Part shown: positions 17,686 to 58,519 of the stretch, piece after piece
Position numbering within the stretch: position 1 is the first letter of the stretch
Layout of the letters: the number at the start of each line of letters is the position of its first letter
The notes under the pieces: model-generated
Seen by the model: only the letters and a program-made list of their open reading frames with translations
What the model was told of the DNA's origin: nothing
The model's database searches: none
Translations under genes and position numbers: made by a program
Assembly: GCA_021773245.1 (NCBI GenBank)
Contig: JAJFKK010000126.1
Location: 6,917-70,916, forward strand
Origin: Gammaproteobacteria bacterium
GTDB lineage: Bacteria; Pseudomonadota; Gammaproteobacteria; Eutrophobiales; Eutrophobiaceae
Direction of reading: 5' to 3'
DNA: 64,000 nucleotides

Positions 17686-18672
17686 TTAGGAATACTCTTC
17701 TGAATTAAACCAATCAATAGCATCTTTAAGTCCTTCGACTCCGGGGCGTGATTGATACCCTAATTTTTCTTTGGCTTTTTCACTTGAAAAGAACATCATC
17801 TTTTTAGACATTTTAACGCTATCGACAGTAGCTCTAGGTTCTTTATTTGTGATGTCAGCTATTCGTTCCATAAACCAAGCAATAGGTAATACTAGATTAT
17901 GAGGTAGCTTGATTGTTGGTGGGGACATATTTTGATTTATACATATGTATTCGAGAATTGACGCCAATGTCATATTATCTCCGCCAAGAATATAACGATC
18001 TCCGATTTCACCTTTCTCCATTGCCAGTAGATGTCCTTTTGCAACATCATCGACATGTACAATATTTAAACCGGTATCAACGTAAGCGGGCATACGATTT
18101 CTAATAGTGTCCAGTACAATTTTTCCAGTAGGAGTTGGTTTTATATCACGAGATCCAACAGGAGTAGACGGATTAACAATGGTAACTGGAGAAGAGTGAG
18201 TTTTTACTAGTTTATTAACTTCTTGCTCAGCTAGAAATTTTGAACGTTTATAGTGGCCGGTCATATCTTCGATTGATACTGGCGTTGTTTCATCAGAAGC
18301 TGTGCCATCACTATTTATACCTAAAGTGGCGACGCTACTGGTATAAACAATTTTTTCAACACCAGCATCGGTTGCTGCCATAATCAAATTACGTGTTCCA
18401 TCAACATTTGTTTTATACATTGTATCTGGATCTGGTATCCATAAGCGGTAATCAGCAGCAAGATGAAAAAGTAAATTACAATCTGTGACTGCGCGTTTTA
18501 ACGAATCATTATCTGTTAGATCACCTTCAATTACCTCAAGATCCAAACCTTCAAAGTTACGTCTGTCTGCATCAGGTCTGACTAGTACGCGTAGAGAATG
18601 GCCTTGATCTAATAATAAGCGCACAACGGCAGAACCAATAAATCCATTTGCACCTGTTACTAATGTTTTCAT
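17686..18672 (-). CDS. hpnA: Hopanoid-associated NAD-dependent sugar epimerase/reductase HpnA
   Basis: Rossmann motif KTLVTGANGFIGSAV and YKRSK catalytic motif. Lies directly downstream of hpnN (4-nt gap). Confidence 0.75.
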   Translation of the reverse strand: MKTLVTGANGFIGSAVVRLLLDQGHSLRVLVRPDADRRNFEGLDLEVIEGDLTDNDSLKRAVTDCNLLFHLAADYRLWIPDPDTMYKTNVDGTRNLIMAATDAGVEKIVYTSSVATLGINSDGTASDETTPVSIEDMTGHYKRSKFLAEQEVNKLVKTHSSPVTIVNPSTPVGSRDIKPTPTGKIVLDTIRNRMPAYVDTGLNIVHVDDVAKGHLLAMEKGEIGDRYILGGDNMTLASILEYICINQNMSPPTIKLPHNLVLPIAWFMERIADITNKEPRATVDSVKMSKKMMFFSSEKAKEKLGYQSRPGVEGLKDAIDWFNSEEYS

Positions 18673-18676
18673 AACG

Positions 18677-21274
18677 CTATTTTTTTAATGAATTTTGCCA
18701 TATTAGAAAAGCGGGAAGAATCATCATAGTCGATATCATCATTGAGGCAAGCCCCAAGGTAAGTAATAAACCCATGCTGGCAGTACCCGTATGCGAAGAA
18801 AATGCAAGGTTACCTACGCTACAAATGGTAGTTAGTGAACTGACGAAAACACCACGAGAAGAACTGGTCATAAAGATATTTCGATTAGTTCCTTGTTCTT
18901 GACGAAATCGGTCCGCTATATGAATTCCGCTATCTACACCAATACCTAATAACAAGGGTAAGCCTATAACATTGGCAAAATTTAGAGGAATATTAAACAA
19001 AAGCGTAAATCCAAAGGTAAAAATAGAACCAACAATAACTGAAATTAAAATAATGACAGCATCCATTTTTTCTTTAACCAGTATTAATAATAATAAGGCA
19101 ATAGCAATCAGAGCATAAGTAAATGCAGTCTTAAATGCTGTTATTACGGCATTTCCAGCTTCGATACTAATAATAGGTGAACCAATAACAGTACTATCAT
19201 AGGCTTGTAATTCATCGACGAATCGTTTCATTGCCGCGTTATCATTTAAATTTTCTTTTGGAAAAATCTCTATTTTATAGTGTTCTTGACTTATCCACCT
19301 GTCATGAACTTCAGTTGGAATATTTTCCAGATTAACTTCCTGTGCGTTTAATGCTTCTCTCAATGCGCTAATTCTTCCGTCAAGATTAAATAACAACTGT
19401 TTCTCTAATGAATTTAATTTTTCATTATTAATTTCATTGTTCAATAAAGATGCTAAATGTTCATTAAGTTTAGATAATTCATTATCTAATTCTGAATCAG
19501 AAAAAGAATTTAATTGAACTTGAAGTTCTTGTATGGCTTTTATCTTTTCTGCGTCAGTAATATCATTATTCTTTGTTCCTGCTGAAAGTGGCCCCATAAA
19601 TAAATTCATTTCATCAATGATAAAGAGCTTTTCTTCTTGTTCAATTGGTAACAAATCTTCAAACCAGATGGTTTTGTCAACTAACTCAAGTTGTTCAAGT
19701 TCTTTTATAGCAGTGACAACCTGATTTCGATCTTGCTTTAATAAAATGCTGCTCCAGGGAGAAGAATCACTATCCTTTAATAAATCACGATAGGTCTGCA
19801 CTGATTCATTTTCAGGATCTTGTAGATTTAAAGTATTAATATCAAAGCTAACTTTATTAAGTTGTGTTACGAAGCCAATTAAAATAACCAGAGTAAAGAG
19901 CAATATTTGTTTTGAGTATTTATAGGGTAAGCTGGTTAAAAGAATTATCCAGGTTTGACCAGATTTATTTGAGTTTTTAGTTAGCGCTTTATAAGGTCTT
20001 AAACTTAACAAAGCAGGTAATAGTGTGAGCGTAAATATTATGCTAATAAACATACCACTGCCTGCAATCCAACCTAATTCGGCAACACCTTCATAATCAG
20101 TTGGTATAAATGAATAAAACCCAATTGCAGTCGTGATGGAGCAAAGGATTAATGAACGGAATATAAGCAACAATGCTTGTTGTAACGCATTACTTTTATC
20201 TGTCAAAAGAACTTGTTCTCGATAACGTAGCGTTAGATGTATCGTGAAATCAATACCCAAGCCGATATATAAAACGGCAAAGGCAACCGAAATAAGATTT
20301 AGCTCGCCAACTGTTGCTGCGGCAAATGCGGTTGTCGAGATTAAACCAAAAAATAAAGTAATAATTGATGCGATGACTAACCAACCCGAACCCAAGCCGA
20401 TTAATAAAATAATTGTGACTAGAAGAAATGAAACAACAATCGCTTGAATATTAGCTTCTGAAACACTTTTTAATTCTTCATAAGATAATGCTGTGCCGCC
20501 AGTTAATCGTATTTTGACAGTATCATTTGTTAGGTTTAATGAGTTTATTGTAGCTCTTACATGTTCAATTACTTTTTCACCCGGTAATAATTCTTCATCC
20601 GATTCCAATGTTCGTAATACAATAAATTCTCTATAGATAGATTTAATTTCTTTGTCTGTACTCATTAAACGTTGCCATGAGACATGGTGTTGTTCATTCT
20701 CAAAGGCTTGATTAATTTCAAGCAACAAAGGTTTTAAATCGATGTCTTCACCTTCTTGCTTGTAGCGAAGGGCATCACCAAGCATAGTAAATAAACCACG
20801 CAGATTTTTATCTTGTAATAGTGTTCCTAGAAAGGGCTGTATAGTTGCTAACTGGTCAGCAAGATCTTGTAATTCATCTGTATCAAAAAATAAAAATGCA
20901 GACTCACGAAAATAAGGAAGAATGTTCGGGTAATAAATATCGTTAATTAATAGCGGATTCTTTTTTAAAGCTGCATTTAACTTAATTGCTGCATCAGTTG
21001 CTTGATCAGGGGTGTTTGATTCTATAACGATGAGTAGATTATCAGTAAATTGAGGAAACTGTTTTTCATATTCGATATCCAGTTTTCGCCATGCCAAATT
21101 TTCTGACAACATATCTGTTGTATCAGTAGTGACACCTAAGTTATCTTTGATATAAAAGATCGAAAAGATGGTTAGAGCAATATAGCTTGCAATAATTGCA
21201 ATCCGATATTGCTCTACAAATTGGACTAGGTTTATTACGATGTTATCGAGATATGATGAATGACTACCATTCAT
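18677..21274 (-). CDS. hpnN: Hopanoid transporter HpnN (RND/MMPL family)
   Basis: 865 aa with two TM bundles, each carrying an RND-type motif (GIDFTIHLTLRYRE, GVDSGIHIADRFRQE), separated by large soluble loops. Hopanoid gene context. Confidence 0.75.
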   Translation of the reverse strand: MNGSHSSYLDNIVINLVQFVEQYRIAIIASYIALTIFSIFYIKDNLGVTTDTTDMLSENLAWRKLDIEYEKQFPQFTDNLLIVIESNTPDQATDAAIKLNAALKKNPLLINDIYYPNILPYFRESAFLFFDTDELQDLADQLATIQPFLGTLLQDKNLRGLFTMLGDALRYKQEGEDIDLKPLLLEINQAFENEQHHVSWQRLMSTDKEIKSIYREFIVLRTLESDEELLPGEKVIEHVRATINSLNLTNDTVKIRLTGGTALSYEELKSVSEANIQAIVVSFLLVTIILLIGLGSGWLVIASIITLFFGLISTTAFAAATVGELNLISVAFAVLYIGLGIDFTIHLTLRYREQVLLTDKSNALQQALLLIFRSLILCSITTAIGFYSFIPTDYEGVAELGWIAGSGMFISIIFTLTLLPALLSLRPYKALTKNSNKSGQTWIILLTSLPYKYSKQILLFTLVILIGFVTQLNKVSFDINTLNLQDPENESVQTYRDLLKDSDSSPWSSILLKQDRNQVVTAIKELEQLELVDKTIWFEDLLPIEQEEKLFIIDEMNLFMGPLSAGTKNNDITDAEKIKAIQELQVQLNSFSDSELDNELSKLNEHLASLLNNEINNEKLNSLEKQLLFNLDGRISALREALNAQEVNLENIPTEVHDRWISQEHYKIEIFPKENLNDNAAMKRFVDELQAYDSTVIGSPIISIEAGNAVITAFKTAFTYALIAIALLLLILVKEKMDAVIILISVIVGSIFTFGFTLLFNIPLNFANVIGLPLLLGIGVDSGIHIADRFRQEQGTNRNIFMTSSSRGVFVSSLTTICSVGNLAFSSHTGTASMGLLLTLGLASMMISTMMILPAFLIWQNSLKK

Positions 21275-21324
21275 TGGGATGAATTCCTAATCAAGCAATA
21301 GATAAACTATCTTAAGTATATAAT

Positions 21325-22071
21325 TTATACTCTGAATACATATTCTTTATCAACATCACGCTCAATATCAGGCGGATAGCTTAGTCTTTTATCATCGTAA
21401 TATTGTCTGCGCTGATCGCCTTCAGCTGCTGCATTGTAAGTAACATAGAGTACACGGCGTTTATCATTGCTGAGGTTTGGTTTTGAGCGATGCGGCGCAT
21501 AAGAGTCGAAAAAGACGGCGTCACCAGGTTCGGTGGGTAATGCAACATAGTCTAATCCGTCTTCTTCCAGAGGAGCCCATTGTTCACCTATTAATCCTTC
21601 ATTATTGTAACCATTGGCAACTTCCAAACAGCCATTTTCTATAGTTGATGCATCGACGCTGACTAATGCAGTGATATGTAATTTCGCATAACGATCCCAA
21701 CCTGCTTGTACATCCTGATGGGCTTTGAAGCCATCTGCCCCAGGCATTTTGAAATTGATTTTATCTTTGAATAATACGGCTTCATCATCAAATAGCTGAG
21801 AAGTAATTTGTTGAATTTCGCCTTGCACAAAAAGATCACTAAAACCTTTGTGAAAAGGCTCAACATCTTCAATACGAGAAATTATTCTTTTTCCTGGCTC
21901 TAATTTACTTTGTTCAAAGTACATCATCACGTTACCTGGAACTTCCGGGTAATTTGTTACTTCTTCTGTCCACGCAGTTATATCTTTCATTCTTTCTGCG
22001 TCGTATAAGTTACGAATCACCAGAAAACCTGTAGTTTTAAATTCTTCTATTTGTTCTTTACTTATTTTCAT
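21325..22071 (-). CDS. Phytanoyl-CoA dioxygenase (PhyH) family Fe(II)/2-oxoglutarate oxygenase
   Basis: 248 aa. HxD facial-triad motif in FKAHQDVQ and the distal His in YAPHRSKPN. N-terminal GFLVIRNL is typical of PhyH proteins. Confidence 0.7.
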   Translation of the reverse strand: MKISKEQIEEFKTTGFLVIRNLYDAERMKDITAWTEEVTNYPEVPGNVMMYFEQSKLEPGKRIISRIEDVEPFHKGFSDLFVQGEIQQITSQLFDDEAVLFKDKINFKMPGADGFKAHQDVQAGWDRYAKLHITALVSVDASTIENGCLEVANGYNNEGLIGEQWAPLEEDGLDYVALPTEPGDAVFFDSYAPHRSKPNLSNDKRRVLYVTYNAAAEGDQRRQYYDDKRLSYPPDIERDVDKEYVFRV

Positions 22072-22141
22072 AATTTACAATATTTTAAATGATAATTTAG
22101 TTTCTTATAAACCAGCTGGAAATATTTAACAAGCCGACTAA

Positions 22142-22855
22142 TCAAATATGCAAGAAATTTTCTTTTTTGAAGTCCGGAGCAAGATCGACTAAGGTTTTTA
22201 AAGCTAGTTTGTAACTTTTTGCCAAGATATAAATTTCCCGAATTTGAGCTGGTCTTAAAATGCAGGATAGGACAAATTTTAGTATATTTGGTCTTCCTAA
22301 GTTATTAGTATATTTCACAACAGCTTCTGGAATAGTGGTGTCAGCTTTATCAGCAATCGACCGAATTACTATAAAATCAAGATTATTTTTACTTGCTATT
22401 TTGGCAATAGCAGCACTTTCCATATCAACAGCTACTGCATTTGTTTTTACTGATAAATTATTTTTATCGGATATCGATGAACATACTTCTTTGCTGGAGA
22501 CGATGTTGCCATGATGCACTTTTATTTTTGATTTTTTAACATGTTCTAATAATTTGTTTTTCCAATCAGTTGACGTTTGAAAAGTTTCATTCTGGCTGAT
22601 GACTGAGTCAGCGAAGATTAGATCTCCTGAATTAAGTTTTATATCTAATGCGCCAGCAACACCCCAACTAATAATACTATCTATTTTATATTCCAATAGT
22701 TTTTTAGCAGCATTGCTAGCCGATACATCACCAATGCCGGAAAGACACAAAAAGATATCTTTTTGGATTTCAACAGGTGCGCAAATATTTAAATTTTTAT
22801 TATATAGACAGGCCGCTTCAGCAGGCAAAGCCGCAATAATTCCTAGTTTACTCAA
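22142..22855 (-). CDS. hpnG: Hopanoid-associated phosphorylase/nucleosidase HpnG (adenosylhopane nucleosidase)
   Basis: PNP/UDP-1 fold motifs (GIIAALPAEA, SWGVAGAL, AVDMESAAIA). TTG start overlapping the shc stop (TTGA). Confidence 0.75.
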   Translation of the reverse strand: MSKLGIIAALPAEAACLYNKNLNICAPVEIQKDIFLCLSGIGDVSASNAAKKLLEYKIDSIISWGVAGALDIKLNSGDLIFADSVISQNETFQTSTDWKNKLLEHVKKSKIKVHHGNIVSSKEVCSSISDKNNLSVKTNAVAVDMESAAIAKIASKNNLDFIVIRSIADKADTTIPEAVVKYTNNLGRPNILKFVLSCILRPAQIREIYILAKSYKLALKTLVDLAPDFKKENFLHI

Positions 22856-24798
22856 ACCTTAACTTTCAACAGGTTTCTATAACGAGCCATGGCCCAAAGT
22901 GGAAAGTATTTTGTATAACCGTGATATTTTAAATAGAACACGCGAGGAAAACCTGGGGCGGTATAACTATCATTATACCAATGACCATCGCTAGCTTGAT
23001 TAGATATTAAAAAGTTAACACCTTTTTTAACCATTTCTGTATCAGCTTCGCCAACAGCTAATAAAGAGAGTAATGCCCAAGCTGTTTGATAAGCAGTACT
23101 TTCAAAGGGACGACGATGTTTAGGTGGATAATAACTATCATTACTTTCTCCCCAACCACCATCTTCATTTTGCATATCCTGTAAATATGTAACCGCTTTT
23201 CTTATGTAGTCTTGCTGTGGATCTTCTTCGGCAAGTTCTAATGCGGTAAGCACTGACCATGTACCATAGATATAGTTAGTGCCCCAGCGGCCAAACCATG
23301 AACCATCTTCTTCTTGATCTGATTTTAAGAAGTTAATTGCATCTTTAATAACAGAAGAATATTTCTCTTTATCAGCAAGGCTTAATAAGGCAATAACACG
23401 TCCTGTCACATCGGCTGTAGGTGGGTCTAATAGGGCACCATGATCGGCAAAAGGAATTGCGTTTAAATAATACTGTGTATTGTTAACTTCAAATGATCCA
23501 AATCCGCCACCATTTGATCGCATACCGGCTACCCATTTAGCCGCACGTTGAATAGGTTCTGAGTATTTTTCTTTGCCAGTACGGTGCATTGCCCAGGCAA
23601 CCATAGAGGTATCATCGAGATCGGGATAATAATAATTACTGTATTGAAATGCCCAGCCACCGCCTTCAAGTTTCGGTCTAGGTATGCGCCAATCACCGGG
23701 TTCATCTCTAAGCTGTCTTTCTTTAAGCCAATCAAGTGAATGTTCTATTTCAGAACTAGTACTTTCTGTGTCTGATTCAATCAAAGATTGTGCTGCAAGG
23801 CAGGTGTCCCAGACAGGTGATACACACGGTTGGCAATACATTGTATTACCACGTTTAGTTAATAATGAATCAATCGCTTGTCGTGCTAATTTTCGTTCAG
23901 GGCTGTCTTTAGCGTAGCCAAGAATAACTAATGATTCGAATGCATTAACCATGGCAGGGAAAATACCACCGATACCATATTCTTCATTCATTCGATCTAG
24001 GAACCATTGTTCGCATTTACGAATGGAATACCGACGTACAAATTTAGGTACAATTTTTTCAGCGAAACGACCTAAATGATCGAGTATAAGAAACGCTCTG
24101 GTGAGAGCTGTGGTCACTTTGAAATAATGTTGTTCATCTTCTGGCGGAGTTATAAAAAGTTCTCTTATGTCTATGCCGCGTGGGTTAGCTGCTTTAGGTT
24201 TCATTGTGCATAGAATAAATAACGGCACCATAACGGTCCGTGACCAATAAGATACTTTATCAATATGAAATGGAAACCATTTCGGAAGAATTATAACTTC
24301 AGCCGGAATAAAAGGCGTCGCTCGCCAAGGTACTTGTTCAAACAGCGCCATTAATATACGTGTAAATACATTACTACGTGCAGCACCACCATGATTCAAA
24401 ATCATGTTTCTTGCGCGAACCATGTGTTCTTCGTGTGGAGCGTCACCAACAATTTTTAAAGCATAGTAACTCTTAACAGCACAACTGATATCAAAATCGC
24501 CCCCAGTATAAAGAGACCATCCGCCATCTTCATTTTGTTGATCACGTAGATATTGAGCAATCTTTAATTCAGTTTCATCATCGATCTCATCGACGAAATG
24601 ATTCATTAATATATATTCAGCAGGAATGGTGCAGTCAGCTTCAAGTTCGTACACCCAATGACCATCATCATGTTGTTGCTCAAGCAATTTATTTTTTGCA
24701 GCTTGAATAGCGTCATCTAAATCAGCTACAGTTTTTTTCGAGTGAGACTCTCCAAGTGTTTGGCTGGAAGAATTTTCGTTGTTACTCACGAGAGTCAT
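22852..24798 (-). CDS. shc: Squalene-hopene cyclase
   Basis: 648 aa. Catalytic DxDDT motif (YPDLDDTSMVAWAM). Multiple QW repeats (QNEDGGWS, QEEDGSWFGRWG, QNEDGGWGES, QASDGHW). Confidence 0.95.
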   Translation of the reverse strand: MTLVSNNENSSSQTLGESHSKKTVADLDDAIQAAKNKLLEQQHDDGHWVYELEADCTIPAEYILMNHFVDEIDDETELKIAQYLRDQQNEDGGWSLYTGGDFDISCAVKSYYALKIVGDAPHEEHMVRARNMILNHGGAARSNVFTRILMALFEQVPWRATPFIPAEVIILPKWFPFHIDKVSYWSRTVMVPLFILCTMKPKAANPRGIDIRELFITPPEDEQHYFKVTTALTRAFLILDHLGRFAEKIVPKFVRRYSIRKCEQWFLDRMNEEYGIGGIFPAMVNAFESLVILGYAKDSPERKLARQAIDSLLTKRGNTMYCQPCVSPVWDTCLAAQSLIESDTESTSSEIEHSLDWLKERQLRDEPGDWRIPRPKLEGGGWAFQYSNYYYPDLDDTSMVAWAMHRTGKEKYSEPIQRAAKWVAGMRSNGGGFGSFEVNNTQYYLNAIPFADHGALLDPPTADVTGRVIALLSLADKEKYSSVIKDAINFLKSDQEEDGSWFGRWGTNYIYGTWSVLTALELAEEDPQQDYIRKAVTYLQDMQNEDGGWGESNDSYYPPKHRRPFESTAYQTAWALLSLLAVGEADTEMVKKGVNFLISNQASDGHWYNDSYTAPGFPRVFYLKYHGYTKYFPLWAMARYRNLLKVKV

Positions 24799-24917: not shown

Positions 24918-25973
24918 TCAAAGTTTCTCATGAATATTTGCCATAGGCAAACGACGTCCGCTGAATTGAAATAAATACTCTAGTATTTTGTTTTGACCGA
25001 CAAAAAGGCTGGTTAATAGGATGGTGGCTTTTACGCTACGGCGACTGATTTTGACTTCCTGCCCTAATGTAAAATCGGGTTTCTGTCTTATTTTTTCCAA
25101 TGTTAATACCGCCATTCCTAATGCCCATAAGCAAAATTTTCGTAATCCTTTCTCTTTTTCAGGAATCATCAAGGTGTAGCGCAAAGCGTTGTAAACATGA
25201 GCATGAGCAACACCGAGTAATTCAATCAAAGCGTCATTAAAACCTTGTGGCATTTCTCCAGGTGTTTTATGTCGAATATCAACTCCATGCTTTTCAAAAA
25301 TATCACGAGGTAACCAACAGGCACCACGATCATGATCTTCCCAGATATCTTTTAGAATGTTGGTCATTTGAAGTCCTTGACCAAATGACACACCGAGTTC
25401 CATCATTTCATCGCGCTGTGCATCGATTTCAGGAGAATGGTCACAAAATAGTTCGGTCAACATTTCACCAACAACACCAGCGACATAATAACAATATTGG
25501 TCCATATCTTTCTGATCGGCAACGCCATCAAGGGTTTCAGCATCCTGATAGAGCACCATGCCATCAGCCATAATTTTTACACAGCGCTCTAAAGCAGCAC
25601 GCTGTCGTTGATTAAAGCTATGTGTAATTCGAATTACCGGCGCCGTATTGGCAATCAAGTCATGTTCTGCTTCAGTCGCAGTAGCTGATAACAATGGAAA
25701 GAGTGCTACTGCAAATGAACCTGAATCTTTATTTCCCTGAACAACCTCAATAAAACGTTCTGCATATTCTTTCTTCGATTCAGCAGACATGCTCTTATCA
25801 TCTTCAATCGTGTCGGCAATTCGACATAAAAGGTAGGCATTTCCGACTACTGTGCAAAGTGGTTCTGGTAATTGTGGAATAGTTAACGCAAAGGTTCTCG
25901 AAACGTGCTGCAATATTTCATTTTGATATGCAATATCATCGAGTGGGGTTAAAAATTCGTCTCTGGATTTCAT
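24918..25973 (-). CDS. sqs: Squalene synthase (single-enzyme, farnesyl-diphosphate farnesyltransferase type)
   Basis: Motifs YLLCRIADTIEDD, YCYYVAGVVGEMLTELF and GLQMTNILKDIWED parallel the eukaryote-type SQS motifs (DTxED, YCxYVAG, NIxxDxxED). 351 aa is longer than HpnC/HpnD. Confidence 0.8.
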   Translation of the reverse strand: MKSRDEFLTPLDDIAYQNEILQHVSRTFALTIPQLPEPLCTVVGNAYLLCRIADTIEDDKSMSAESKKEYAERFIEVVQGNKDSGSFAVALFPLLSATATEAEHDLIANTAPVIRITHSFNQRQRAALERCVKIMADGMVLYQDAETLDGVADQKDMDQYCYYVAGVVGEMLTELFCDHSPEIDAQRDEMMELGVSFGQGLQMTNILKDIWEDHDRGACWLPRDIFEKHGVDIRHKTPGEMPQGFNDALIELLGVAHAHVYNALRYTLMIPEKEKGLRKFCLWALGMAVLTLEKIRQKPDFTLGQEVKISRRSVKATILLTSLFVGQNKILEYLFQFSGRRLPMANIHEKL

Positions 25974-26081
25974 TTACAATGATTATCTCTTTTAAAAACA
26001 ATAGGATATAACAAACTATCGTTTCATATTATTATGTGTAAGTTAAAAATAGTCAGTTTACTCGTTATTTTGAACCAAATT

Positions 26082-26127
26082 TACAAAACCATAACCGTTT
26101 TCAGCGATGATGCTACAAGGTTTTGTA
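26082..26127. promoter_or_regulatory. 9-bp perfect inverted repeat in the sqs / pfaD divergent intergenic region
   Basis: TACAAAACC (26082-26090) and GGTTTTGTA (26119-26127), separated by 28 nt, inside the 288-bp region that must hold both divergent promoters. Confidence 0.3.
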
Positions 26128-26261
26128 TGAAAATAATGATATTATTCAATAATTAGGCTCGTTTAGGACGCGCACATTACAATTAGAACAGATGGATGTA
26201 AATAAATAAGCATCGTCCTTTCCGACATAACATATCAGAAGGCATTATTGATTAAATTACA

Positions 26262-48050: not shown

Positions 48051-48534
48051 GTAGTGTGGCTAGTCTTTTTGTTGTGTCACGCAGGCGTGCGGTAAGTATT
48101 TTTGACAGTTTCCACAATAATTTATTTCCTAGATCGTGATGTTGGTTAACGATATCCTGGAAATCTTCACTAGTAATTAATAAAACCGTAGAATCTTCTG
48201 AAGCTATTGCCGATGCAGAAAAAGGTTCGCCATCAATAATCCCCATCTCACCAATAGATTCACCAGCAGTGACGTCAGCGATTTTTAATTGTTCGTCATT
48301 TGGTAAGCCTTTGAATATATTAATTGTGCCGGTAATGATGATACACAAGCAATTACTTTTATCTCCTTCGTGTAAAACGACGCAACCAGTATCTGCAATA
48401 TAAGCTTTGCTCCAACGGGATAATGTTCTCAGTTCTTCTTCATTAAAATCTATAAAGAAGTTTGATTCTTTTAATAAGTTGTACGTGGCTTCTCTAAATG
48501 AGTCACCGTTATCGAGTAGTTTTAGATCTTTCAA
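48034..48534 (-). CDS. Stand-alone cyclic-nucleotide-binding domain protein
   Basis: 166 aa with the cNMP-binding signature GESIGEMGIIDGEPFSASAIA. No output domain. Confidence 0.7.
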   Translation of the reverse strand: MKDLKLLDNGDSFREATYNLLKESNFFIDFNEEELRTLSRWSKAYIADTGCVVLHEGDKSNCLCIIITGTINIFKGLPNDEQLKIADVTAGESIGEMGIIDGEPFSASAIASEDSTVLLITSEDFQDIVNQHHDLGNKLLWKLSKILTARLRDTTKRLATLLTGKK

Positions 48535-50138: not shown

Positions 50139-50912
50139 ATGCCTAATTGGTATAATCTACCCACCTATTATGACATTTCATTTTCACATGAGATGCATGA
50201 GGAACTTGTCTTTCTTAAGAACGTGTTTAAGAAATATCGTGCTGGAAACTCGCTACATTTACTGGAACCTGCATGTGGTACAGGTCGCTTGATCGTTCCA
50301 CTAAGCCGTTTTGGATACCAATGTACTGGTTTTGATATAAATAATAATGCGCTCAATTATCTTAATGAAAAGCTTAATAGAAACAATCTCGTTGCAACTC
50401 TTTTTCACGCGGATATGGTTAATTTCCCAATTAAACCAGCAAAATTCGATGGTGCGTATTGTACAGTTGATACCTTTAGACATTTATTATCTGAGAAACA
50501 TGCGGTTCAACATTTAAAGAATGTAGCAAAAGGACTTAAAAAAAATGCTATCTATGTAATAGGTTTACATTTATATCCGAAACAGGGTATTACAAATAAG
50601 CTCTCTCGGTGGACATCAAGAAGAGGACAACTGACAGTTAAGACATCAATGACATTGATAGGGCAAGATAGAAAGAAACGAACAGAAACGTTAAGCGTTA
50701 TTTTAAAAGCAGATACAAAGACACAAAGTAATCAGTATGAGTCGGTCTATAAACTTCGGACATATACGTTAAACGAATTATATAAATTGGTTTCAAAGAC
50801 AAAGGTTTTTGAAATAGAAAGTATTTTTGATTACGACTACGATCTTTCTCGACCAGTTGTACTAGATGAAAAGTCAGATTATGGTGTATTTATACTCAGA
50901 AAAGTGAAATAA
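50139..50912 (+). CDS. Class I SAM-dependent methyltransferase
   Basis: Motif I LLEPACGTGRLIVPL and post-I GFDIN. 257 aa. Substrate unknown. Confidence 0.7.
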   Translation: MPNWYNLPTYYDISFSHEMHEELVFLKNVFKKYRAGNSLHLLEPACGTGRLIVPLSRFGYQCTGFDINNNALNYLNEKLNRNNLVATLFHADMVNFPIKPAKFDGAYCTVDTFRHLLSEKHAVQHLKNVAKGLKKNAIYVIGLHLYPKQGITNKLSRWTSRRGQLTVKTSMTLIGQDRKKRTETLSVILKADTKTQSNQYESVYKLRTYTLNELYKLVSKTKVFEIESIFDYDYDLSRPVVLDEKSDYGVFILRKVK

Positions 50913-51643: not shown

Positions 51644-51654
51644 AATAGAGAAAT

Positions 51655-52083
51655 ATGGGACCAAAATTGACAGAGCAGGTGTGTTACACCTTATATTCAA
51701 CATCCCGAGCTGTAACTCAGGCTTATAAACCCTTATTGGAGCCATTAAATTTAACTTATCCGCAATATGTAGTGATGATGGCCTTATGGGATAATGATGC
51801 AGTCAAAATAACTGAAATTGCTGAGTTGACAGGTATTAGCAATGCAACTCTAAGTCCTTTACTTAAGCGTTTAGAGTTAAATGGTTTTCTTGAGAGAAGA
51901 ATGACGGAAACTGACGAACGTCAAAAATCATTAATATTAACTACTTCTGGAAAAGCATTAGGGCGGAAAGCAAAGAAGGCTAGTGAAATGGCATTATGTG
52001 CTACCGGACTAAACGAAAAAGATGCCTCTAAACTAATGAGTCTATGTGAACGGATTAGATCGAATCTGGATGAATTATCCTAG
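51655..52083 (+). CDS. MarR-family regulator, OhrR-like (N-terminal redox Cys)
   Basis: LTEQVCYTLYSTSRAV resembles the OhrR QLCFxLY sensing-Cys motif. Winged HTH region ITEIAELTGISNATLSPLLKRLELNGFLER. Confidence 0.7.
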   Translation: MGPKLTEQVCYTLYSTSRAVTQAYKPLLEPLNLTYPQYVVMMALWDNDAVKITEIAELTGISNATLSPLLKRLELNGFLERRMTETDERQKSLILTTSGKALGRKAKKASEMALCATGLNEKDASKLMSLCERIRSNLDELS

Positions 52084-52120
52084 AAAACGCAGTTGACTGG
52101 TTATAACTCGGAACAATGTT

Positions 52121-52717
52121 TTATAAATCAGACTTCTTTAATTTATATAAAGTTACTAGTGCAAAAACAGGTGCGCCAACTGATGCTCCTATAAGAAAAG
52201 GGTAGTGCCAACCTAGCCAAACTACCGGCGCAAATAAATAAAGAACATCATCAAAATCAAATCCTGCAAAGCCAGCATAAGCTTTTTCACCGGTGTCCTT
52301 TTGTGCCTGGTCAATGATTTCGGCAAGAATTTCAGCTGCAACAACACCTGCCGCTGCACTTATTCCCATAAGAATTGACCAGTAACCAAGAGCACTGTCT
52401 CTAAGACCAATGCCAATACCAACAAAGAACAGAGATGTGACCGTAACATCACAGAAGTAATCAAATTTATGTCCCCATTCGCTAGTTTTCCCCGATACTC
52501 TGGCAAGCTCACCATCAGCACGATCAAGAAAAGAAGAAATTAACCAGAGAATACCGCCCCAAAGATTCCATTCTTTTGTGCCTATCGCGAAAGCACTACA
52601 AGCAGCGATACCCGTTATCAAGCGAAGTATGGTTAGGTGATTAGGTGTGACGGGTGTTTTTACTAATGGCAGTATACAAACACGCGCTATTTTATGTGTC
52701 CAGGAATCTCCGACCAT
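52121..52717 (-). CDS. CDP-alcohol phosphatidyltransferase family membrane protein (copy 1)
   Basis: Signature D-x2-DG-x2-AR...D-x3-D in LDRADGELARVSGKTSEWGHKFDYFCD. 198 aa, polytopic. Confidence 0.75.
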   Translation of the reverse strand: MVGDSWTHKIARVCILPLVKTPVTPNHLTILRLITGIAACSAFAIGTKEWNLWGGILWLISSFLDRADGELARVSGKTSEWGHKFDYFCDVTVTSLFFVGIGIGLRDSALGYWSILMGISAAAGVVAAEILAEIIDQAQKDTGEKAYAGFAGFDFDDVLYLFAPVVWLGWHYPFLIGASVGAPVFALVTLYKLKKSDL

Positions 52718-52966: not shown

Positions 52967-53929
52967 TTAGTCGTTAAAACCAGAGAGTGTAATATCAAAC
53001 TTTTCGATAGTGCGTTTCGTGCGCGCGTGGATTAATGCCTTATATTCAGCTTCGAATTCATAATCGTTAGCAGCGGGATCAATGTCATCCCAACGCTCTG
53101 TCGCAGGGTGAGCGTATATTTCTGTTACGCCATCTTCAATGTGCGGCAAAATACGAATCAATTTGTCGATGTTCATATGCCCGCTATCATGTAAACCGAA
53201 GATACTATCGTTGTAATTAATATTCCTGACATCGCATTGCTTCTTCATGCTTGCAACAAACGGTTTAAAGAATAACCATTGAGCATAACGTTTAAGTTTT
53301 TCTTTTTTATTTTCAATAATCGATTCAAGCGGTACTTCATTAGGAATACGAATCGCTGTTAAGTTGTATTCACTGCCAATAGTCAGGAGCAAACTGAATA
53401 CAGTAGGATGTAAATGCATATGGTTATGTGCATTGACATGATCTAATGTTAATCCTGTTGCTTTAAAGGCTTCAAATTGTGCACGAATTTCTTTTTCAAG
53501 TTGATATTTTGCTTCGGTATTAAAGAACATCTTAATACCGCTGCTTATCTGCTTAGTACTGAAATTGCCATCGGCATCAACCAGCGCAGAAAGTTCAGAA
53601 GCAGGTAAGGTTGCTTTACCATTACTCAAGACGAGATGTAATCCAACTTTTAAATCAGGTAAAGTTTTAGCACGATTAACAGCATCATCTACAGCAGGTG
53701 CAGATACCATCAGACTAGTTGTCGTCAGGATCCCTTTTTCGTGAGCCTTTGCTATTGCCTCATTAACAGGTGTGGAAAGACCAAAATCATCACCGCTAAC
53801 GATTAGTTTTTTCAGGCCGTGCTCTCCCGTCCAAACAGGAATTTGAAGAACTCGACGCCTTCGCGTAATCGACGTTTCATTATTTCCCAATCGCGACACA
53901 TCTCGAAAAATAATGTGGCCATCTTCCAT
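52967..53929 (-). CDS. hpnK: HpnK (YdjC-family deacetylase of the hopanoid cyclitol-ether branch)
   Basis: KKLIVSGDDFGLSTPVNEAIAKAHEKGILTTTSLMV is the YdjC N-terminal motif. The ATG at 53929 overlaps hpnJ by 118 nt, and the conserved part begins at about 53812, so the true start is uncertain. Confidence 0.7.
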   Translation of the reverse strand: MEDGHIIFRDVSRLGNNETSITRRRRVLQIPVWTGEHGLKKLIVSGDDFGLSTPVNEAIAKAHEKGILTTTSLMVSAPAVDDAVNRAKTLPDLKVGLHLVLSNGKATLPASELSALVDADGNFSTKQISSGIKMFFNTEAKYQLEKEIRAQFEAFKATGLTLDHVNAHNHMHLHPTVFSLLLTIGSEYNLTAIRIPNEVPLESIIENKKEKLKRYAQWLFFKPFVASMKKQCDVRNINYNDSIFGLHDSGHMNIDKLIRILPHIEDGVTEIYAHPATERWDDIDPAANDYEFEAEYKALIHARTKRTIEKFDITLSGFND

Positions 53930-55233
53930 GGGCGGAAATAAAAACGTTTATAGAAATTATCTACCGCTTCAAAAATTTCTTCACTAGGTAGGTGCGGATA
54001 ATTTAATACTGAATGTTGAACTCCATCATCACCGACAAGATCTTCATCGACAATTAGCCAGCCATTTTCTACTGCTTGTTTGTACAACAACGTTCCTGGA
54101 TAGGCAGCAGGAAGCGAAACTTGAATCGTTTGTGGGTTAAGTTCCTTGGCATAGTTAATTGACTCTTCTATGGTTTCTTGTGTTTCACCCGGCAAACCAA
54201 CAATGAATGTACCGTGAATAAGAATACCGAGCTTATGACAATCTTTTGTAAATTGACGTGCGATATCAGTACGAATGCCTTTCTTTATGTTTATTAGAAT
54301 TTGTTGATTACCAGATTCATAACCGACCAGTAATAAACGCAGGCCATTATCTTTCATTATTTTCAATGTTTCATAAGGGACATTAGCCTTAGCGTTACAA
54401 GACCAGGTGATACCAAGCTTGCCGATTTCTTTTGCTAATTCTTCAACATAAGGAATGTTGTCTGTCAGAGTGTCATCATCAAAAAAGAATTCTTTTATTT
54501 CAGGAAAATTATCGCGTGCATAAGTTAACTCTTTAATAACATTTTCAACCGATTTATGACGATAGTTATGGCCAGAGATTGTTTGTGGCCATAAACAGAA
54601 CGAACAATGTGATTTACAACCACGACCGGTATAGAACGACATATACGGGTGCAGCATATAACCATTGTAATAATCTGTTGTCACCAGATGTTCTTTATAA
54701 ACCGGGGTGACCGGAGGCAGGGTATCCATATCTTCGATCAAAGCACGATCTTTATTGTGAACCGGTTTACCGTCTTTTTTATAAATAATACCATCTACTT
54801 CTTCTAACGCTTTGCCTTCAGCAATTTCTTTAATCGTAAAATCAAATTCGTTACCGGTAACAAAATCGATTGCATCGGAAGCAGTAACTGTTTGATCAGG
54901 GTTAACTGCAACATGTGCTCCACAAAATCCGATTTTTAAATTTGGATTCTCACTTTTAAATGCTTCAGCAATCTTTACATCATTTGGAAATGATGGGGTA
55001 CTGGTATACATAACAAGAAATTCATAATCTTTTGCTAAAGGTAAAATTTCTTCTAGCGATGTACCACGAGCGGGTGCATCTATTAAACGGCTTCCTTCTA
55101 CTAAAGCGGCTAGCTGAGCTAACCATGTAGGGTACCAGAATGATTTAACTTCACGAGTACATTGGTAACGGGAACCAGCCGCGCCATCAAAGCCATTAAA
55201 TGAAGGCGGATTAAGAAATAATGTTTTTAACAT
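53812..55233 (-). CDS. hpnJ: HpnJ (B12-binding-domain radical SAM enzyme of hopanoid side-chain modification)
   Basis: MLKTLFLNPPSFNGFDGAAGSRYQ N-terminus and a mid-protein CxxxCxxC cluster (GRGCKSHCSFCLW). The ATG at 55233 is preceded by GGAG and lies 19 nt after the hpnI stop. The ORF-track start at 55299 would overlap hpnI. Confidence 0.8.
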   Translation of the reverse strand: MLKTLFLNPPSFNGFDGAAGSRYQCTREVKSFWYPTWLAQLAALVEGSRLIDAPARGTSLEEILPLAKDYEFLVMYTSTPSFPNDVKIAEAFKSENPNLKIGFCGAHVAVNPDQTVTASDAIDFVTGNEFDFTIKEIAEGKALEEVDGIIYKKDGKPVHNKDRALIEDMDTLPPVTPVYKEHLVTTDYYNGYMLHPYMSFYTGRGCKSHCSFCLWPQTISGHNYRHKSVENVIKELTYARDNFPEIKEFFFDDDTLTDNIPYVEELAKEIGKLGITWSCNAKANVPYETLKIMKDNGLRLLLVGYESGNQQILINIKKGIRTDIARQFTKDCHKLGILIHGTFIVGLPGETQETIEESINYAKELNPQTIQVSLPAAYPGTLLYKQAVENGWLIVDEDLVGDDGVQHSVLNYPHLPSEEIFEAVDNFYKRFYFRPWKMATLFFEMCRDWEIMKRRLREGVEFFKFLFGRESTA

Positions 55234-55252
55234 TGTATGAAAATGCTCCGAA

Positions 55253-56476
55253 TTAATAATCTTGTGTTGTTGCCAACTCAGGAATGTCTTCTTCCCCAAT
55301 CAGCACGTCATGTTTTGTATGAATTAAACCAGCTTGGTCAACGTTGAATGAATTATTGCGCCATTGGATTGAATTGCCAGTAAAACTAGCAACTCTAATA
55401 CAAAATGACAAAGTATCACGCAACGGAATTAATAAAATCGAACCAGCTCTATTAGAGCTTGTTATCTGCGATGTACGTATATGTAAAATTACTCGAGCGA
55501 TTGATACTAAAAGGACTGGTAATAATGCCCAGAATAAACTGGCTGTTGAAAAATAAATTATAAAAGCAGTAATGAAACTGATTACTAACGTATCAGTTAA
55601 AAATGTAAATGCGTAACCTAAAGGTTCTACACGTCTTAATGTTCTTGCCCAACGTAATTCATGGGTTACCAGATCTTTAATTGATGATTCTTCAACAATA
55701 TTTTCTACGATAAAATTAGACAGATGAATTTTGTAACCAAGATCAGAAACAAGTTTTCCAAGCATGTAATCATCAGCTAAGTAATCGGATAAAGCTTTAA
55801 AGCCACCGATCTCGTCAAGTAGATTTTTTCTAACGACCATGGTTGCACCCAGACAATATTTAATGGGCTGCAATATTTTTGAAATTAAAACAGAAGGTAA
55901 AAACCATTCGTTAATAAACATAGCGTTTAATGATGAAGCAATCTTACCTTTGGCAGAGCCCGAATAGAGACAAGTAACAGCACCAACTTCGGAATCAGAA
56001 AATGCCGGCATAACACTGGATAGATAATTCTCAGGTACACGCATATCACTATCTGCAATCAGAACATAATCATGTTTTACAGATGGATACATATTAATCA
56101 GATTCGATACTTTGCGATTAGCACCATGAATTTTTGAATCAACAATATAACTAACATCGACATTCTTAAATTCTTTTATAACTTTTTCGATAAGGGGGAT
56201 AGCTAGATCCTTTTTATCTTGTACACCAAAAATAATTTGGTAAGAGGGATAATCCTGACGACAAAAACTACGAAGATTATCTAGCATTTCAGGGTCAAGA
56301 CCATAAACAGGTTTTAATACGCTGACCGGAAAATTAACGTCTTTTGAAGATAATTCTTTTTTACGTTTTAGATTAAAAAGTTCTACGGCAAATATGGCAA
56401 AAATTGAATAAGCAGCCGAACACAGACATATCAAAATGACAGTAATATTAAAAATGTTGAAAAATTCAGTTTGCAT
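55253..56476 (-). CDS. hpnI: HpnI (family-2/21 glycosyltransferase of hopanoid side-chain modification)
   Basis: N-terminal TM segment, then PVSVLKPVYGLDPEMLDNLRSFCRQDYPSYQIIFGV (ceramide-glucosyltransferase-like signature). Adjacent to hpnJ and hpnK. Confidence 0.75.
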   Translation of the reverse strand: MQTEFFNIFNITVILICLCSAAYSIFAIFAVELFNLKRKKELSSKDVNFPVSVLKPVYGLDPEMLDNLRSFCRQDYPSYQIIFGVQDKKDLAIPLIEKVIKEFKNVDVSYIVDSKIHGANRKVSNLINMYPSVKHDYVLIADSDMRVPENYLSSVMPAFSDSEVGAVTCLYSGSAKGKIASSLNAMFINEWFLPSVLISKILQPIKYCLGATMVVRKNLLDEIGGFKALSDYLADDYMLGKLVSDLGYKIHLSNFIVENIVEESSIKDLVTHELRWARTLRRVEPLGYAFTFLTDTLVISFITAFIIYFSTASLFWALLPVLLVSIARVILHIRTSQITSSNRAGSILLIPLRDTLSFCIRVASFTGNSIQWRNNSFNVDQAGLIHTKHDVLIGEEDIPELATTQDY

Positions 56477-56695
56477 GGATTATCTGTATTTGTGCTTTAA
56501 AAAACTCATTATGTTTTGTTTGGGTTTGTCACTAAATAAACATTTTAAATAACAATGACTTAGAAGCGGAAATTATAAATCTTTTAAAGCTATTAAGACA
56601 AGTAATATTAATTTCTGAAATTGCCATCGTATTAACCGCGCAGCATATTGATTTTGGGCTCTTAAAGCAAATTTTTACAGAATGATGTTGTGACG

Positions 56696-57697
56696 TTACG
56701 GAGTATCTTGAGGAGGTGTTTTTCCTGATTTTTTCAGCAAATATTTGGCCTCGATGTTATGCCAATAGAGTAATCCAGGAAGATCGACAATCAGTTCCCT
56801 GATACGAGTTGCCAGCGATATGGTCAGAGAGAGTTCCGGACTCAGGCCAATAAGTGCGCCCAGCATCAAATAACCACCTTCCTGAACCCCATATCCATTG
56901 GGAATAACGAAGGCAATGTCAGTAATTATGGATGTCAGACTTTTCAGCATCAAAGCTTCAATCAGGCTAATGGGGTAGCCTAAAAGGTAGCAGGCAAGCC
57001 AAACTTCGGAGGTTTGCCAAATCAAACCAATGGTTCGCCATAAAATTGAAGCAAAAAACCGCCCCTTATTACTGTAGATTTCTTTGACGATAGCATCGAC
57101 TTCATGGGCATTATTGGTGATTTGACCCCAGCCATCTGAAGTATGGAATTTGCCAATAAAACGGGTAATAAAGCCAAATAGTCCTGCACGCTGGATAATG
57201 ACAAAACCGACAATTCCCAATCCCAGCAAAAAGGTACCGAGCATAATGAGTTTGGCCAGTTCATTATCTATTGCCAAATACACTAATAAAGCCGTACCAA
57301 TGATGGCCCACGGGACTAAAGCCAATGCCTGCACAGTTTTATCGACTAAAACGGAGGCGCTGGCATCAACACCACCTCTACCCCAAAGTATCAATAATCG
57401 TGCTTTGGCGATTTCCCCGCCAATAGAGGCAACGGGAAGTAGCGTATTGATTGCTCTTCCCATCCACAAAGCCAGAGATAATTCCTTGAAAGGAGGAATT
57501 CGATTAACTGGAAAAAGATAATGCCACGAGATAATCGCGAATAAGAGACTAGGCAGCCAGGCAATAGGTAATAATAATAAGGAGAAACCAGTCTCAACCA
57601 ATAATTCAAATATTTCATCTATCCCTTGCCATGCGATAAGTATTGCTAATATTAAGAGCCCAGCAAGTAAGCCAATGTAGGAAACAATTCGAATCAT
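56696..57697 (-). CDS. UPF0104/LPG-synthase-TM family membrane protein (HpnL-like)
   Basis: 333-aa polytopic protein. VASIGGEIAKARLL resembles the conserved GGE..R motif of this family. Upstream of hpnI on the same strand. Markedly GC-richer than hpnI. Confidence 0.5.
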   Translation of the reverse strand: MIRIVSYIGLLAGLLILAILIAWQGIDEIFELLVETGFSLLLLPIAWLPSLLFAIISWHYLFPVNRIPPFKELSLALWMGRAINTLLPVASIGGEIAKARLLILWGRGGVDASASVLVDKTVQALALVPWAIIGTALLVYLAIDNELAKLIMLGTFLLGLGIVGFVIIQRAGLFGFITRFIGKFHTSDGWGQITNNAHEVDAIVKEIYSNKGRFFASILWRTIGLIWQTSEVWLACYLLGYPISLIEALMLKSLTSIITDIAFVIPNGYGVQEGGYLMLGALIGLSPELSLTISLATRIRELIVDLPGLLYWHNIEAKYLLKKSGKTPPQDTP

Positions 57698-57817
57698 TTA
57701 ATTAGGGAAGTTCGTAGAGTAAGTAAGATTTTAATTTCTGTGTACGGATTAGAATAACAAGCGGATTTGTAACATACTAGACGAATCATTTCACGCTAGA
57801 AACACAAGAATCACAAC

Positions 57818-58519
57818 ATGACTGCAGAAACACAAGACTATTCCGACCAGATAACCAAACCAACGCAACTCTTTCCATTAGTACGCCATATGTCGTATCG
57901 ATTAACACCGATACTATTAAAAACGTCATTAACACCAAATCAGGTTACCAGCATATCAATGGCGATGGGACTAATAGGCTCAGCCTGTTTCTTATTTGGT
58001 AATTTAATAATGGGAATTATTGGAGCTTTGTTATTAACAGCGAGTTATACCTTTGATAATTGCGATGGTGAAATTGCACGTATCAAAAGAATGTCTTCCG
58101 AGTTTGGCGCAAAGTTGGACGACTTGTCTGACTGGATGGTTGATGCGAGTTTTTTTGCTGCATTAGGTTACGGCACAACACTAGCAACCGGTCAGGTATT
58201 CTGGGCATGGTTAGGTTATGCGGCGGCCGCCGGCGCGATTATAGATTACATTGTCGATTTACGTTTTCATGCAAAAAACGCAAAAGACGAAGAAGCAAAA
58301 TCACGCGAAGAAGTTGCTACCGAACCCAAACAACCAGAAGATGCATTGGACTGGATGATCTATATTTTTCATAAACTCAGCCGTGCTGACTTTTGTTTGA
58401 TTGTATTAGGACTCGCTTTGTTTAATGTAACGTGGATTTTGTTACCGTTTGCCGCGATAGGTGCGCAGGTATATTGGATTACTGATTTGTTTGAAAGAGC
58501 TCGGGGATATCACACGTAG
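57818..58519 (+). CDS. CDP-alcohol phosphatidyltransferase family membrane protein (copy 2)
   Basis: Signature FDNCDGEIARIKRMSSEFGAKLDDLSDWMVD. 233 aa. Divergent from the hpnL-like gene. Confidence 0.7.
   Translation: MTAETQDYSDQITKPTQLFPLVRHMSYRLTPILLKTSLTPNQVTSISMAMGLIGSACFLFGNLIMGIIGALLLTASYTFDNCDGEIARIKRMSSEFGAKLDDLSDWMVDASFFAALGYGTTLATGQVFWAWLGYAAAAGAIIDYIVDLRFHAKNAKDEEAKSREEVATEPKQPEDALDWMIYIFHKLSRADFCLIVLGLALFNVTWILLPFAAIGAQVYWITDLFERARGYHT

Follow-up and report, generated by a model that had tools for sequence, protein, structure and literature searches.

Among the closest described systems is the pathway in which a Pfa synthase supplies the acyl chains that are condensed by OleA, giving a 31:9 polyunsaturated hydrocarbon (PMC6463001). 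The adjacency of pfa and ole genes is already known, for example in Photobacterium profundum SS9 (PMC6463001, PMC3098273); 'pfa-like' clusters with a pfaBC fusion have been proposed as suppliers of olefin precursors, and Geobacter bemidjiensis produces hentriacontanonaene (PMC3098273). The 31:9 hydrocarbon increases under culture conditions that increase polyunsaturated fatty acids (PUFA), and a role in the cold or at high pressure has been suggested, its physiological role still being called obscure (PMC6463001). Here we analyzed a 64,000-nucleotide stretch of the gammaproteobacterial contig JAJFKK010000126.1 (the window, with a low GC content of about 38%), in which a pfa/ole array lies inside a cluster of hopanoid (hpn) genes at 17686-58519. 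No description of such a hopanoid/pfa adjacency was found in our literature search.

Gene identities were assigned from an open reading frame (ORF) listing together with Pfam and NCBIfam scans of the window proteins. From left to right, the locus consists of hpnA-hpnN-PhyH-hpnG-shc-sqs on the minus strand, a 288-bp gap, the pfa/ole array on the plus strand, the gene of an hpnO-type aminotransferase, and hpnK-J-I-L. An original prediction, made from the sequence of the window without database searches, had named these genes and described the hopanoid genes as split around the array; the Pfam and NCBIfam scans confirmed every named gene at its place, as well as the split, and added genes for a cNMP-binding protein, a methyltransferase, a cytochrome P460, a MarR-family regulator, and two CDP-alcohol phosphatidyltransferases. 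The three chemically unrelated membrane modulators that it had counted are reduced to two pathways, since Pfa feeds OleABCD in a single one (PMC6463001, PMC3098273). We consider it probable that two lipid pathways were combined in the locus when a portable polyolefin operon was inserted into an ancestral, contiguous hopanoid cluster, and that the operon was then inherited vertically, some descendants losing or rearranging it at a later stage.

The pfa/ole array and the hopanoid genes around it

The plus-strand array opens with pfaD, encoding an enoyl reductase (26262-27938; TIGR02814, 632 bits for a cut-off of 449), whose GTG/ATG start is conserved. It is followed by pfaA (27942-34694), with the Pfam domains KS-AT-4xACP-KR-DH and four LGIDSIKRVEILS ACP repeats in its sequence, and by pfaC (34733-41293), for which scans of the whole protein and of its segments gave the order KS-CLF-AT-DH-DH, including a fused PfaB-like AT (E-value 1.7e-7). 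No separate pfaB gene was found in the window; the AT domain, with a GYSLGE motif, lies within PfaC, as it does in the pfaBC-fusion types (PMC3098273), and the segment scan places it between the CLF and the two DH domains.

The gene oleA (41303-42502, plus strand) encodes a head-to-head condensing thiolase whose top PDB matches are 3ROW and 4KTI, and the alignment to 3ROW showed that the Cys, Glu, His, and Asn motifs (NACL, EP(A/S)TA, HQV, and GNIG) are retained. Both structures, deposited as '3-oxoacyl-[ACP] synthase III', are presumably the OleA of X. campestris, and the OleA homologs carry the JGI name acyl-CoA:acyl-CoA alkyltransferase. Still on the plus strand, dinB, the gene of DNA polymerase IV (42585-43691; Pfam IMS domains), stands between oleA and oleB. 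The latter (43787-44674; PF00561, top matches haloalkane-dehalogenase-like) encodes an alpha/beta-hydrolase of the beta-lactone decarboxylase type and is followed by oleC, encoding an olefin beta-lactone synthetase (44681-46336; Shewanella-type NF045785, 646 bits; PRK09274, 705 bits), oleD, encoding a 2-alkyl-3-oxoalkanoate reductase (46312-47328; Shewanella-type NF042423, 483 bits), and the gene of a Sfp/HetI-type phosphopantetheinyl transferase (PPTase) in the role of PfaE (47328-48050; PF01648 and PF22624). The successive genes are separated by 3, 38, 9, 82, 95, and 6 nt, then by two overlaps, which is consistent with a single operon.

From this gene content and its known counterparts, the 22-kb array is best interpreted as a single operon whose product would be a polyunsaturated long-chain olefin; the array may or may not release free PUFA in addition. 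The PPTase would activate the four ACPs of PfaA, the Pfa synthase would produce polyunsaturated acyl-ACPs, and OleA would join two polyunsaturated acyl chains head to head, its product then being turned by OleD, OleC, and OleB into a long polyunsaturated olefin of the 31:9 type. We infer that the olefin derives from Pfa acyl chains from the fusion of ole and pfa genes in one operon and from the described pathway (PMC6463001).

The left hopanoid block, entirely on the minus strand, begins at the gap with sqs (24918-25973; PF00494, 198 bits; top NCBIfam match TIGR01559), which encodes a single-enzyme squalene synthase instead of HpnCDE and, being immediately upstream of shc, links the squalene supply to the cluster. 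Next come shc, encoding the squalene-hopene cyclase (22852-24798; TIGR01507, 805 bits for a cut-off of 431), hpnG, encoding a hopanoid-associated nucleoside phosphorylase in conserved synteny (22142-22855; TIGR03468, 181 bits, slightly below the cut-off of 187), the gene of a PhyH-family Fe(II)/2-oxoglutarate dioxygenase inside the hopanoid operon (21325-22071; PF05721), hpnN, encoding an RND hopanoid transporter (18677-21274; TIGR03480, 847 bits for a cut-off of 752), and hpnA, encoding a hopanoid-associated SDR/epimerase (17686-18672; TIGR03466, 496 bits for a cut-off of 368).

On the right, also on the minus strand, are the gene of a class-III aminotransferase of the hpnO type (48547-49971; PF00202), hpnK (52967-53929; TIGR03473, 355 bits), hpnJ, encoding a B12/radical SAM enzyme (53812-55299; TIGR03471, 763 bits), and hpnI, encoding a glycosyltransferase (55253-56476; TIGR03472, 406 bits), the last three above their cut-offs, and then hpnL (56696-57697; TIGR03476, 251 bits for a cut-off of 196). 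Together, Sqs would produce the squalene that Shc cyclizes, HpnG, the hpnO-type aminotransferase, and HpnI/K/J would build extended side chains from the adenosylhopane of an HpnH encoded elsewhere, and HpnN would export the hopanoids.

Gene order in relatives and history of the locus

Relatives were collected by a scan anchored on squalene-hopene cyclase (SHC) with one genome per species, giving 80 loci with 10-kb flanks that were compared by tblastn with all the window proteins. All 80 come from uncultured Gammaproteobacteria labelled Thiotrichaceae UBA7357/UBA973/UBA4486, 'Legionellales', or Steroidobacteraceae; the right junction and other contexts were read from the neighborhoods of OleA homologs. 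The junction of sqs with pfaD-pfaA was identical in 23 loci from 23 independent assemblies (SHC identity 76-88%), and two more contigs (L008 and L013) stop before pfaD but carry the sequence block specific to this junction. The right half of the window is repeated exactly in L163 as pfaA-pfaC, oleABCD-PPTase-cNMP-aminotransferase-MT-P460-MarR-CDPOH-hpnK-hpnJ, without dinB (MT, methyltransferase; CDPOH, CDP-alcohol phosphatidyltransferase), and L081 has pfaC-oleABCD-PPTase-aminotransferase-MT-...-CDPOH-hpnK. In L159, of the same lineage as L007, dinB is present and the aminotransferase gene is missing.

Since the sequence comes from an uncultured source and was found in biofilm and sediment metagenome runs, and since the protein collection has no entry for the exact PfaD of the window, counted from its GTG start, an assembly or binning artefact was considered. 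The same sqs/pfaD junction in at least 23 independent assemblies, among them megabase-scale contigs and complete chromosomes, and the right junction in L163 and L081 refute such a chimera, the probability of which we regard as negligible.

The outgroups have no pfa gene beside sqs and show a contiguous hopanoid order. In L044, the genes run uninterrupted as hpnI-J-K-CDPOH-aminotransferase-sqs-shc-hpnG-PhyH-hpnN-CDPOH-hpnA, with an overlap of 4 nt between the aminotransferase gene and sqs, and the order aminotransferase-sqs-shc was also found in L032, L041, and L049. With L037, in which pfaA-pfaD diverges from aminotransferase-sqs-shc on the far side of hpnO, this makes five relatives with the aminotransferase gene immediately upstream of sqs. 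No HpnO model matched the aminotransferase of the window, the top NCBIfam match being the PigE aminotransferase domain; more than 30 contigs from soil or peat carry homologs with about 50% identity next to hpnN/hpnG/hpnH/shc, and both kinds of synteny support an HpnO-type role. Deleting 26262-48534 (pfaD to PPTase and the cNMP gene) from the window recreates the hpnO-sqs-shc order of these relatives, which identifies the pfa/ole array as the insertion.

Five loci (L017, L019, L024, L025, and L027), called clade B, have the order ispB-CDPOH2-hpnL-I-J-K-CDPOH1-MT-PPTase-sqs-shc-hpnG-PhyH-hpnN-hpnA, which is that of the window minus pfaD to oleD, the cNMP gene, the aminotransferase, P460, and MarR genes. 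Their PPTase ORF is intact (242-244 amino acids) and lies exactly between sqs and MT-CDPOH-hpnK. In L021 and L026, unrelated housekeeping genes occupy the upstream side of sqs.

The array itself was found in several other settings. In five genomes (L158, L161, L162, L180, and L181), an RND efflux gene pair adjoins pfaC-oleABCD-PPTase at a housekeeping site, with leuS next to it in three of them. One of the five, OZ244890.1, a 2.5-Mb chromosome whose hopanoid locus is L043, carries pfaC-oleABCD-PPTase about 170 kb from sqs-shc-hpnG-hpnN-hpnA (1.18-1.20 Mb versus 1.36-1.38 Mb). In other lineages, unrelated genes come after pfaA-pfaC-oleABCD-PPTase. Given these several contexts, pfa/ole/PPTase is a portable module, and PPTase is its terminal gene in every context seen.

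Two observations concern the Pfa genes of these relatives. In the five genomes with the RND layout, the divergent efflux pair lies directly before pfaC and no pfaA or pfaD is found upstream, which means that the Pfa synthase genes are split between loci in that lineage. In L172-L179, the order is pfaA-pfaC-oleA-PPTase with no adjacent oleBCD, and the pfaC region is fragmented in several of the contigs.

A bootstrapped neighbor-joining tree of concatenated Sqs, SHC, HpnG, HpnN, and HpnA grouped all the loci with pfaD adjacent to sqs, clade B, L021, and L026 in one clade with 100% bootstrap. Within it, clade B was nested among lineages that carry pfaD (bootstrap supports, 62, 72, and 83%). Pairwise distances of SHC and PfaD were correlated (r = 0.87, Mantel p = 0.001), and GC content at third codon positions (GC3) was similar in the pfa/ole genes (0.255) and the left hopanoid block (0.263), so that neither GC nor GC3 gave a compositional sign of a recent transfer of the array. 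The correlation and the lack of a GC or GC3 anomaly point to vertical descent after the insertion. No flanking integrase or repeats turned up, although no search was aimed at them.

The most economical reading of these gene orders and trees would be a single insertion by which the pfa/ole operon came to separate hpnO from sqs in the common ancestor of a clade of uncultured marine/sediment Gammaproteobacteria, splitting the hpnO-sqs-shc operon; the event might be earlier than this ancestor if the L037 layout reflects the same insertion. The array would then have been inherited vertically, with later loss or rearrangement in some descendants: clade B would have lost pfaD to oleD at this locus, PPTase being left as a remnant, and L021 and L026 would have been rearranged. 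The original prediction had proposed that conservation of the juxtaposition be checked in related genomes. It is conserved in 23 members of one clade, seven further members of which have lost it, and it does not occur beyond this clade. The arrangement named there as speaking for an incidental insertion, contiguous hopanoid blocks with pfa/ole elsewhere, exists in part: the blocks are contiguous in clade B and L044, and the two gene sets are far apart in OZ244890.1, yet the junction is kept in 23 relatives.

Several points weigh against this reading, or against parts of it. In a tree of SHC only, clade B is the sister of the pfaD-bearing lineages and is not nested among them, and the choice between loss and an ancestral state for clade B depends on the moderate bootstraps and on the PPTase remnant. 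The position of pfaA-pfaD on the far side of hpnO in L037 requires more than one rearrangement. The junction is kept in 23 species while the neighbors vary (mrpD versus citMHS beside hpnA), which is also compatible with selection for linkage. As for the polyolefin part, OleB, OleC, and OleD score under the strict NCBIfam equivalog cut-offs.

The order oleA-(dinB)-oleB-oleC-oleD is common to the relatives compared. Besides the window, the dinB gene was present only in L159 and L160, of the L007/L159 lineage, and missing from L163, L081, L158, L161, L162, L164, and every other context; it is a lineage-specific insertion. Other cargo was observed between oleB and oleC, namely IS1595 and Bro-N in L158 and an N6/N4 methylase with a helix-turn-helix protein in L181. 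The dinB gene and this differing cargo indicate that the ole operon tolerates insertions.

The oleA gene of the window looks as if it had recently recombined between lineages, judging from its identities and composition. The window OleA is 99% identical to those of L159 and L160 (91.6% in DNA), the flanking genes being 67-76% identical in protein and 70-73% in DNA, and L163, the closer relative overall, has an OleA only 89% identical to that of the window. The GC3 of oleA in the window is 0.39, near the L159 value of 0.41, with 0.21-0.26 in its neighbors in the window.

The region between sqs and pfaD

As originally described, sqs and pfaD diverge across a shared 288 bp, located at 25974-26261. 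The length of this gap is 286-301 bp in most species with the junction (clade A). A block of about 90 bp, at about 26116-26202 as read directly from the sequence, has 21 invariant columns among 22 species, the rest of the gap having mostly diverged, and it was found only in loci with pfaD adjacent to sqs.

The conserved block looks like a pair of overlapping divergent promoters for sqs and pfaD, an arrangement that the insertion would have brought about. Reading toward pfaD, TGnTAnnAT at 26137-26145 (alignment columns T164 G165 n T167 A168 n n A171 T172) resembles an extended -10 promoter pattern. Farther along are CACATTACA at 26173-26181 and GGATGTAAA at 26194-26202, the latter being GGATGYAAA across relatives, so that the minus strand of these motifs reads TTTRCATCC-N-TGTAATGTG. 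This provides, toward sqs, a -35-like TTTRCA and a -10-like TAATGT that are 17-18 nt apart (26202-26173, minus strand). If both promoter assignments are right, the predicted start sites of pfaD and sqs would cross by roughly 14 nt, and overlapping divergent promoters make some transcriptional interplay plausible.

Other searches in and around this region were negative. When 25800-26400 was scanned for sigma-70 promoters, sites were no more numerous than in shuffled sequences and the conserved block was not called, and the block was absent upstream of pfaC in the genomes where RND efflux genes adjoin pfaC. Neither an Rfam match in the whole window nor a consensus structure in the putative pfaD leader (RNAalifold, 16 relatives) was found; with no consensus RNA fold, the block is more likely to be a DNA-level signal than a structured RNA. 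Among public runs carrying the locus, no RNA-seq run matched, only DNA metagenomes from biofilm and sediment.

Co-regulation of sqs and pfaD is possible from this arrangement, and the conserved block is the only positive hint of transcriptional interplay between them. Promoters that face each other might lead to mutual exclusion of RNA polymerase or be served by one regulator, which would make a reciprocal or coordinated switch of membrane ordering by hopanoid and polyunsaturated hydrocarbon; we find this improbable. If it were true, the obscure 31:9 hydrocarbon would gain a defined physiological partner.

The broader proposal, hinted at in the original prediction, is that the whole locus is a selected supercluster for membrane homeostasis, co-regulated from the sqs-pfaD region, perhaps by the MarR or the cNMP-binding protein, and tuning membrane order with temperature, pressure, or oxygen. 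The retention of the junction in 23 species-level relatives with a gap of nearly constant length in most, the restriction of the conserved block to this junction, and the retention of the right-hand junction in L163 and L081 would fit with it, as would the rise of the hydrocarbon under PUFA conditions and its suggested role in the cold or at high pressure (PMC6463001). However, the linkage is dispensable, having been lost in clade B, L021, and L026 and being replaced by a distance of about 170 kb in OZ244890.1, and close relatives differ in whether they have hpnO, the cNMP gene, P460, and MarR. Moreover, a search for three conserved motifs elsewhere in the window, including the other hopanoid promoters, as a shared operator gave no enrichment.

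The neighbors of hpnA provide a further comparison. Three consecutive Proton_antipo_M (MrpD/NuoN-like) genes adjoin hpnA in the window (12617-17469). In clades A and B and in several outgroups, this mrpD-like trio lies beside the hopanoid block, next to hpnA or, in loci that lack hpnA, next to hpnN. Phylogenetically, this range is broader than that of the pfa-sqs adjacency. As this unrelated trio is the more widely adjacent of the two, conserved adjacency in this region is not evidence of function. Taking these observations together, we hold the regulated supercluster to be possible but unlikely; what the adjacency best reflects is a past insertion, and it does not amount to evidence for a regulon.

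A separate block, located 107-140 bp upstream of sqs, is conserved in clade B and has the promoter-like sequence AAAATACTCTTTGCCTAAT-N-TA(C/T)(A/T)TATATTAATGT; it showed no significant similarity to the clade-A block. The sqs promoter of clade B (TTGCCT-N17-TAATGT) was also considered as a homolog of the clade-A block, which would have been proof of a clean deletion, and was rejected, as the local alignment was no better than those of shuffled sequences.

Tailoring genes, hpnH, and the described systems

Several genes of the locus are shared unevenly among relatives. The cNMP-binding domain protein (48034-48534, minus strand; PF00027) is encoded in L163 and L159 but not in L081. The S-adenosylmethionine (SAM)-dependent methyltransferase gene (50139-50912, plus strand; Pfam) is retained beside PPTase in clade B. 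It is followed by the genes of the cytochrome P460 (50995-51513, minus strand; PF16694) and of the 142-amino-acid MarR-family regulator (51655-52083, plus strand; PF01047), the latter also present in L159 and L163. In L081, the interval from the methyltransferase gene to that of the CDP-alcohol transferase encodes, instead of P460 and MarR, a 1514-amino-acid multi-PAS GGDEF-EAL protein (1322-5866 of that locus).

The first CDP-alcohol phosphatidyltransferase gene (52121-52717, minus strand; PF01066) is conserved beside hpnK, and the second (57818-58519, plus strand; PF01066) beside hpnL in clade B. A third copy was observed between hpnN and hpnA in L010, L015, L017, L019, L025, L044, and others. 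These embedded enzymes resemble archaetidylinositol-phosphate synthase, and two or three copies are conserved with the hopanoid cluster. To our knowledge, no hpn function has been assigned to them; they may be a sign of an unusual phospho-linked head group.

The PhyH dioxygenase between hpnG and hpnN is 62-94% identical across the marine clade, versus 29-64% for HpnG, and has no counterpart in the Steroidobacteraceae outgroup. Its top NCBIfam match is methylphosphonate hydroxylase, far under the cut-off. It is a candidate for an uncharacterized hopanoid-modifying oxygenase.

These unexplained tailoring genes (PhyH, methyltransferase, and CDP-alcohol transferases), together with an hpnO-type gene close to the PPTase end of the array, could suggest that the two pathways are coupled biochemically, a Pfa product being attached to a hopanoid, for instance by N-acylation of the hpnO-type amine, to give one hybrid lipid. 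We regard this as highly improbable. No acyltransferase or condensation enzyme able to make the link is present, and the array ends in a complete oleABCD set that would consume the acyl chains. In addition, the L007/L159 lineage has the full array without hpnO, and many genomes that lack pfa have hpnO linked to shc.

The original prediction had noted the absence of hpnH, the adenosylhopane synthase gene, from the window. This was verified with an HpnH query taken from a relative (TIGR03470, 534 bits), which gave no tblastn match in the window nor within 10 kb of shc in L001-L053; the only radical-SAM gene of the locus is hpnJ. By comparison, hpnH is found near shc in the Steroidobacteraceae and soil/peat loci (L054-L080 and L087-L157). 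As hpnH is unlinked throughout L001-L053, its absence is a trait of the whole marine group and not of the window. HpnH is needed upstream of HpnG, HpnI/J/K, and HpnO in the known hopanoid pathway, and for this reason hpnH is presumably encoded elsewhere in the genome.

Outside the locus, a chemotaxis operon lies upstream in the window and encodes a 939-amino-acid transducer (2548-5367). The N-terminal region of this protein is globin-like (flavohaemoprotein match at residues 11-143), and it also has PAS domains and a methyl-accepting chemotaxis protein (MCP) module of the Aer2-like kind.

Hopanoids and the 31:9 polyunsaturated hydrocarbon both serve as biomarkers, and, as judged from their genes, the uncultured marine/sediment Gammaproteobacteria of this widespread group probably produce the two lipids. 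The split cluster, the contiguous cluster with a PPTase remnant, and the gene sets lying far apart form a natural series of genomes for testing whether the two lipids interact in the membrane.

Compared to the canonical hpn clusters of Rhodopseudomonas palustris TIE-1, Burkholderia, and Methylobacterium, the locus has in common shc, hpnG, hpnI/J/K, hpnN, hpnA, hpnL, and an hpnO-type aminotransferase gene, most of them above the TIGRFAM cut-offs in the window. It differs by the single Sqs in place of HpnCDE, by an hpnH that is unlinked across the marine clade, by the additional PhyH dioxygenase, two or three CDP-alcohol phosphatidyltransferases, and methyltransferase, and by being split by pfa/ole.

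The array shares with the Pfa and OleABCD pathway of Shewanella oneidensis MR-1 and S. pealeana, the genes of which are adjacent in P. profundum SS9, the same PfaA/C/D domain sets, a Sfp-type PPTase, complete oleABCD, the pfa-ole linkage, and the OleA motifs. In contrast to these systems, its order is pfaD-pfaA-pfaC, with the enoyl reductase first and PPTase last; it has no separate pfaB, the AT being in PfaC, and no pfaT thioesterase in the array; dinB splits oleA from oleB; the whole operon lies within a hopanoid cluster; and the product is deduced from the genes.

The 'pfa-like' clusters of Type I and Type L (Shulse & Allen 2011; Geobacter, Gemmata, and others) both have the pfaBC fusion, as in the window, and a pfaD at the 5' end, as in the window, is stated for Type L only (PMC3098273). 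The PfaC of the window is nevertheless KS-CLF-AT-DH2, versus KS-CLF-DH2-AT in Type L, and its host is a marine gammaproteobacterium. Finally, pfa clusters have been described as horizontally acquired islands, as in Vibrio splendidus 12B01 (PMC3098273), and the module considered here likewise varies between close relatives and occurs in several contexts. Unlike such islands, the array of the window has no compositional anomaly, and its insertion appears to be old enough for pfa to have diverged together with SHC.

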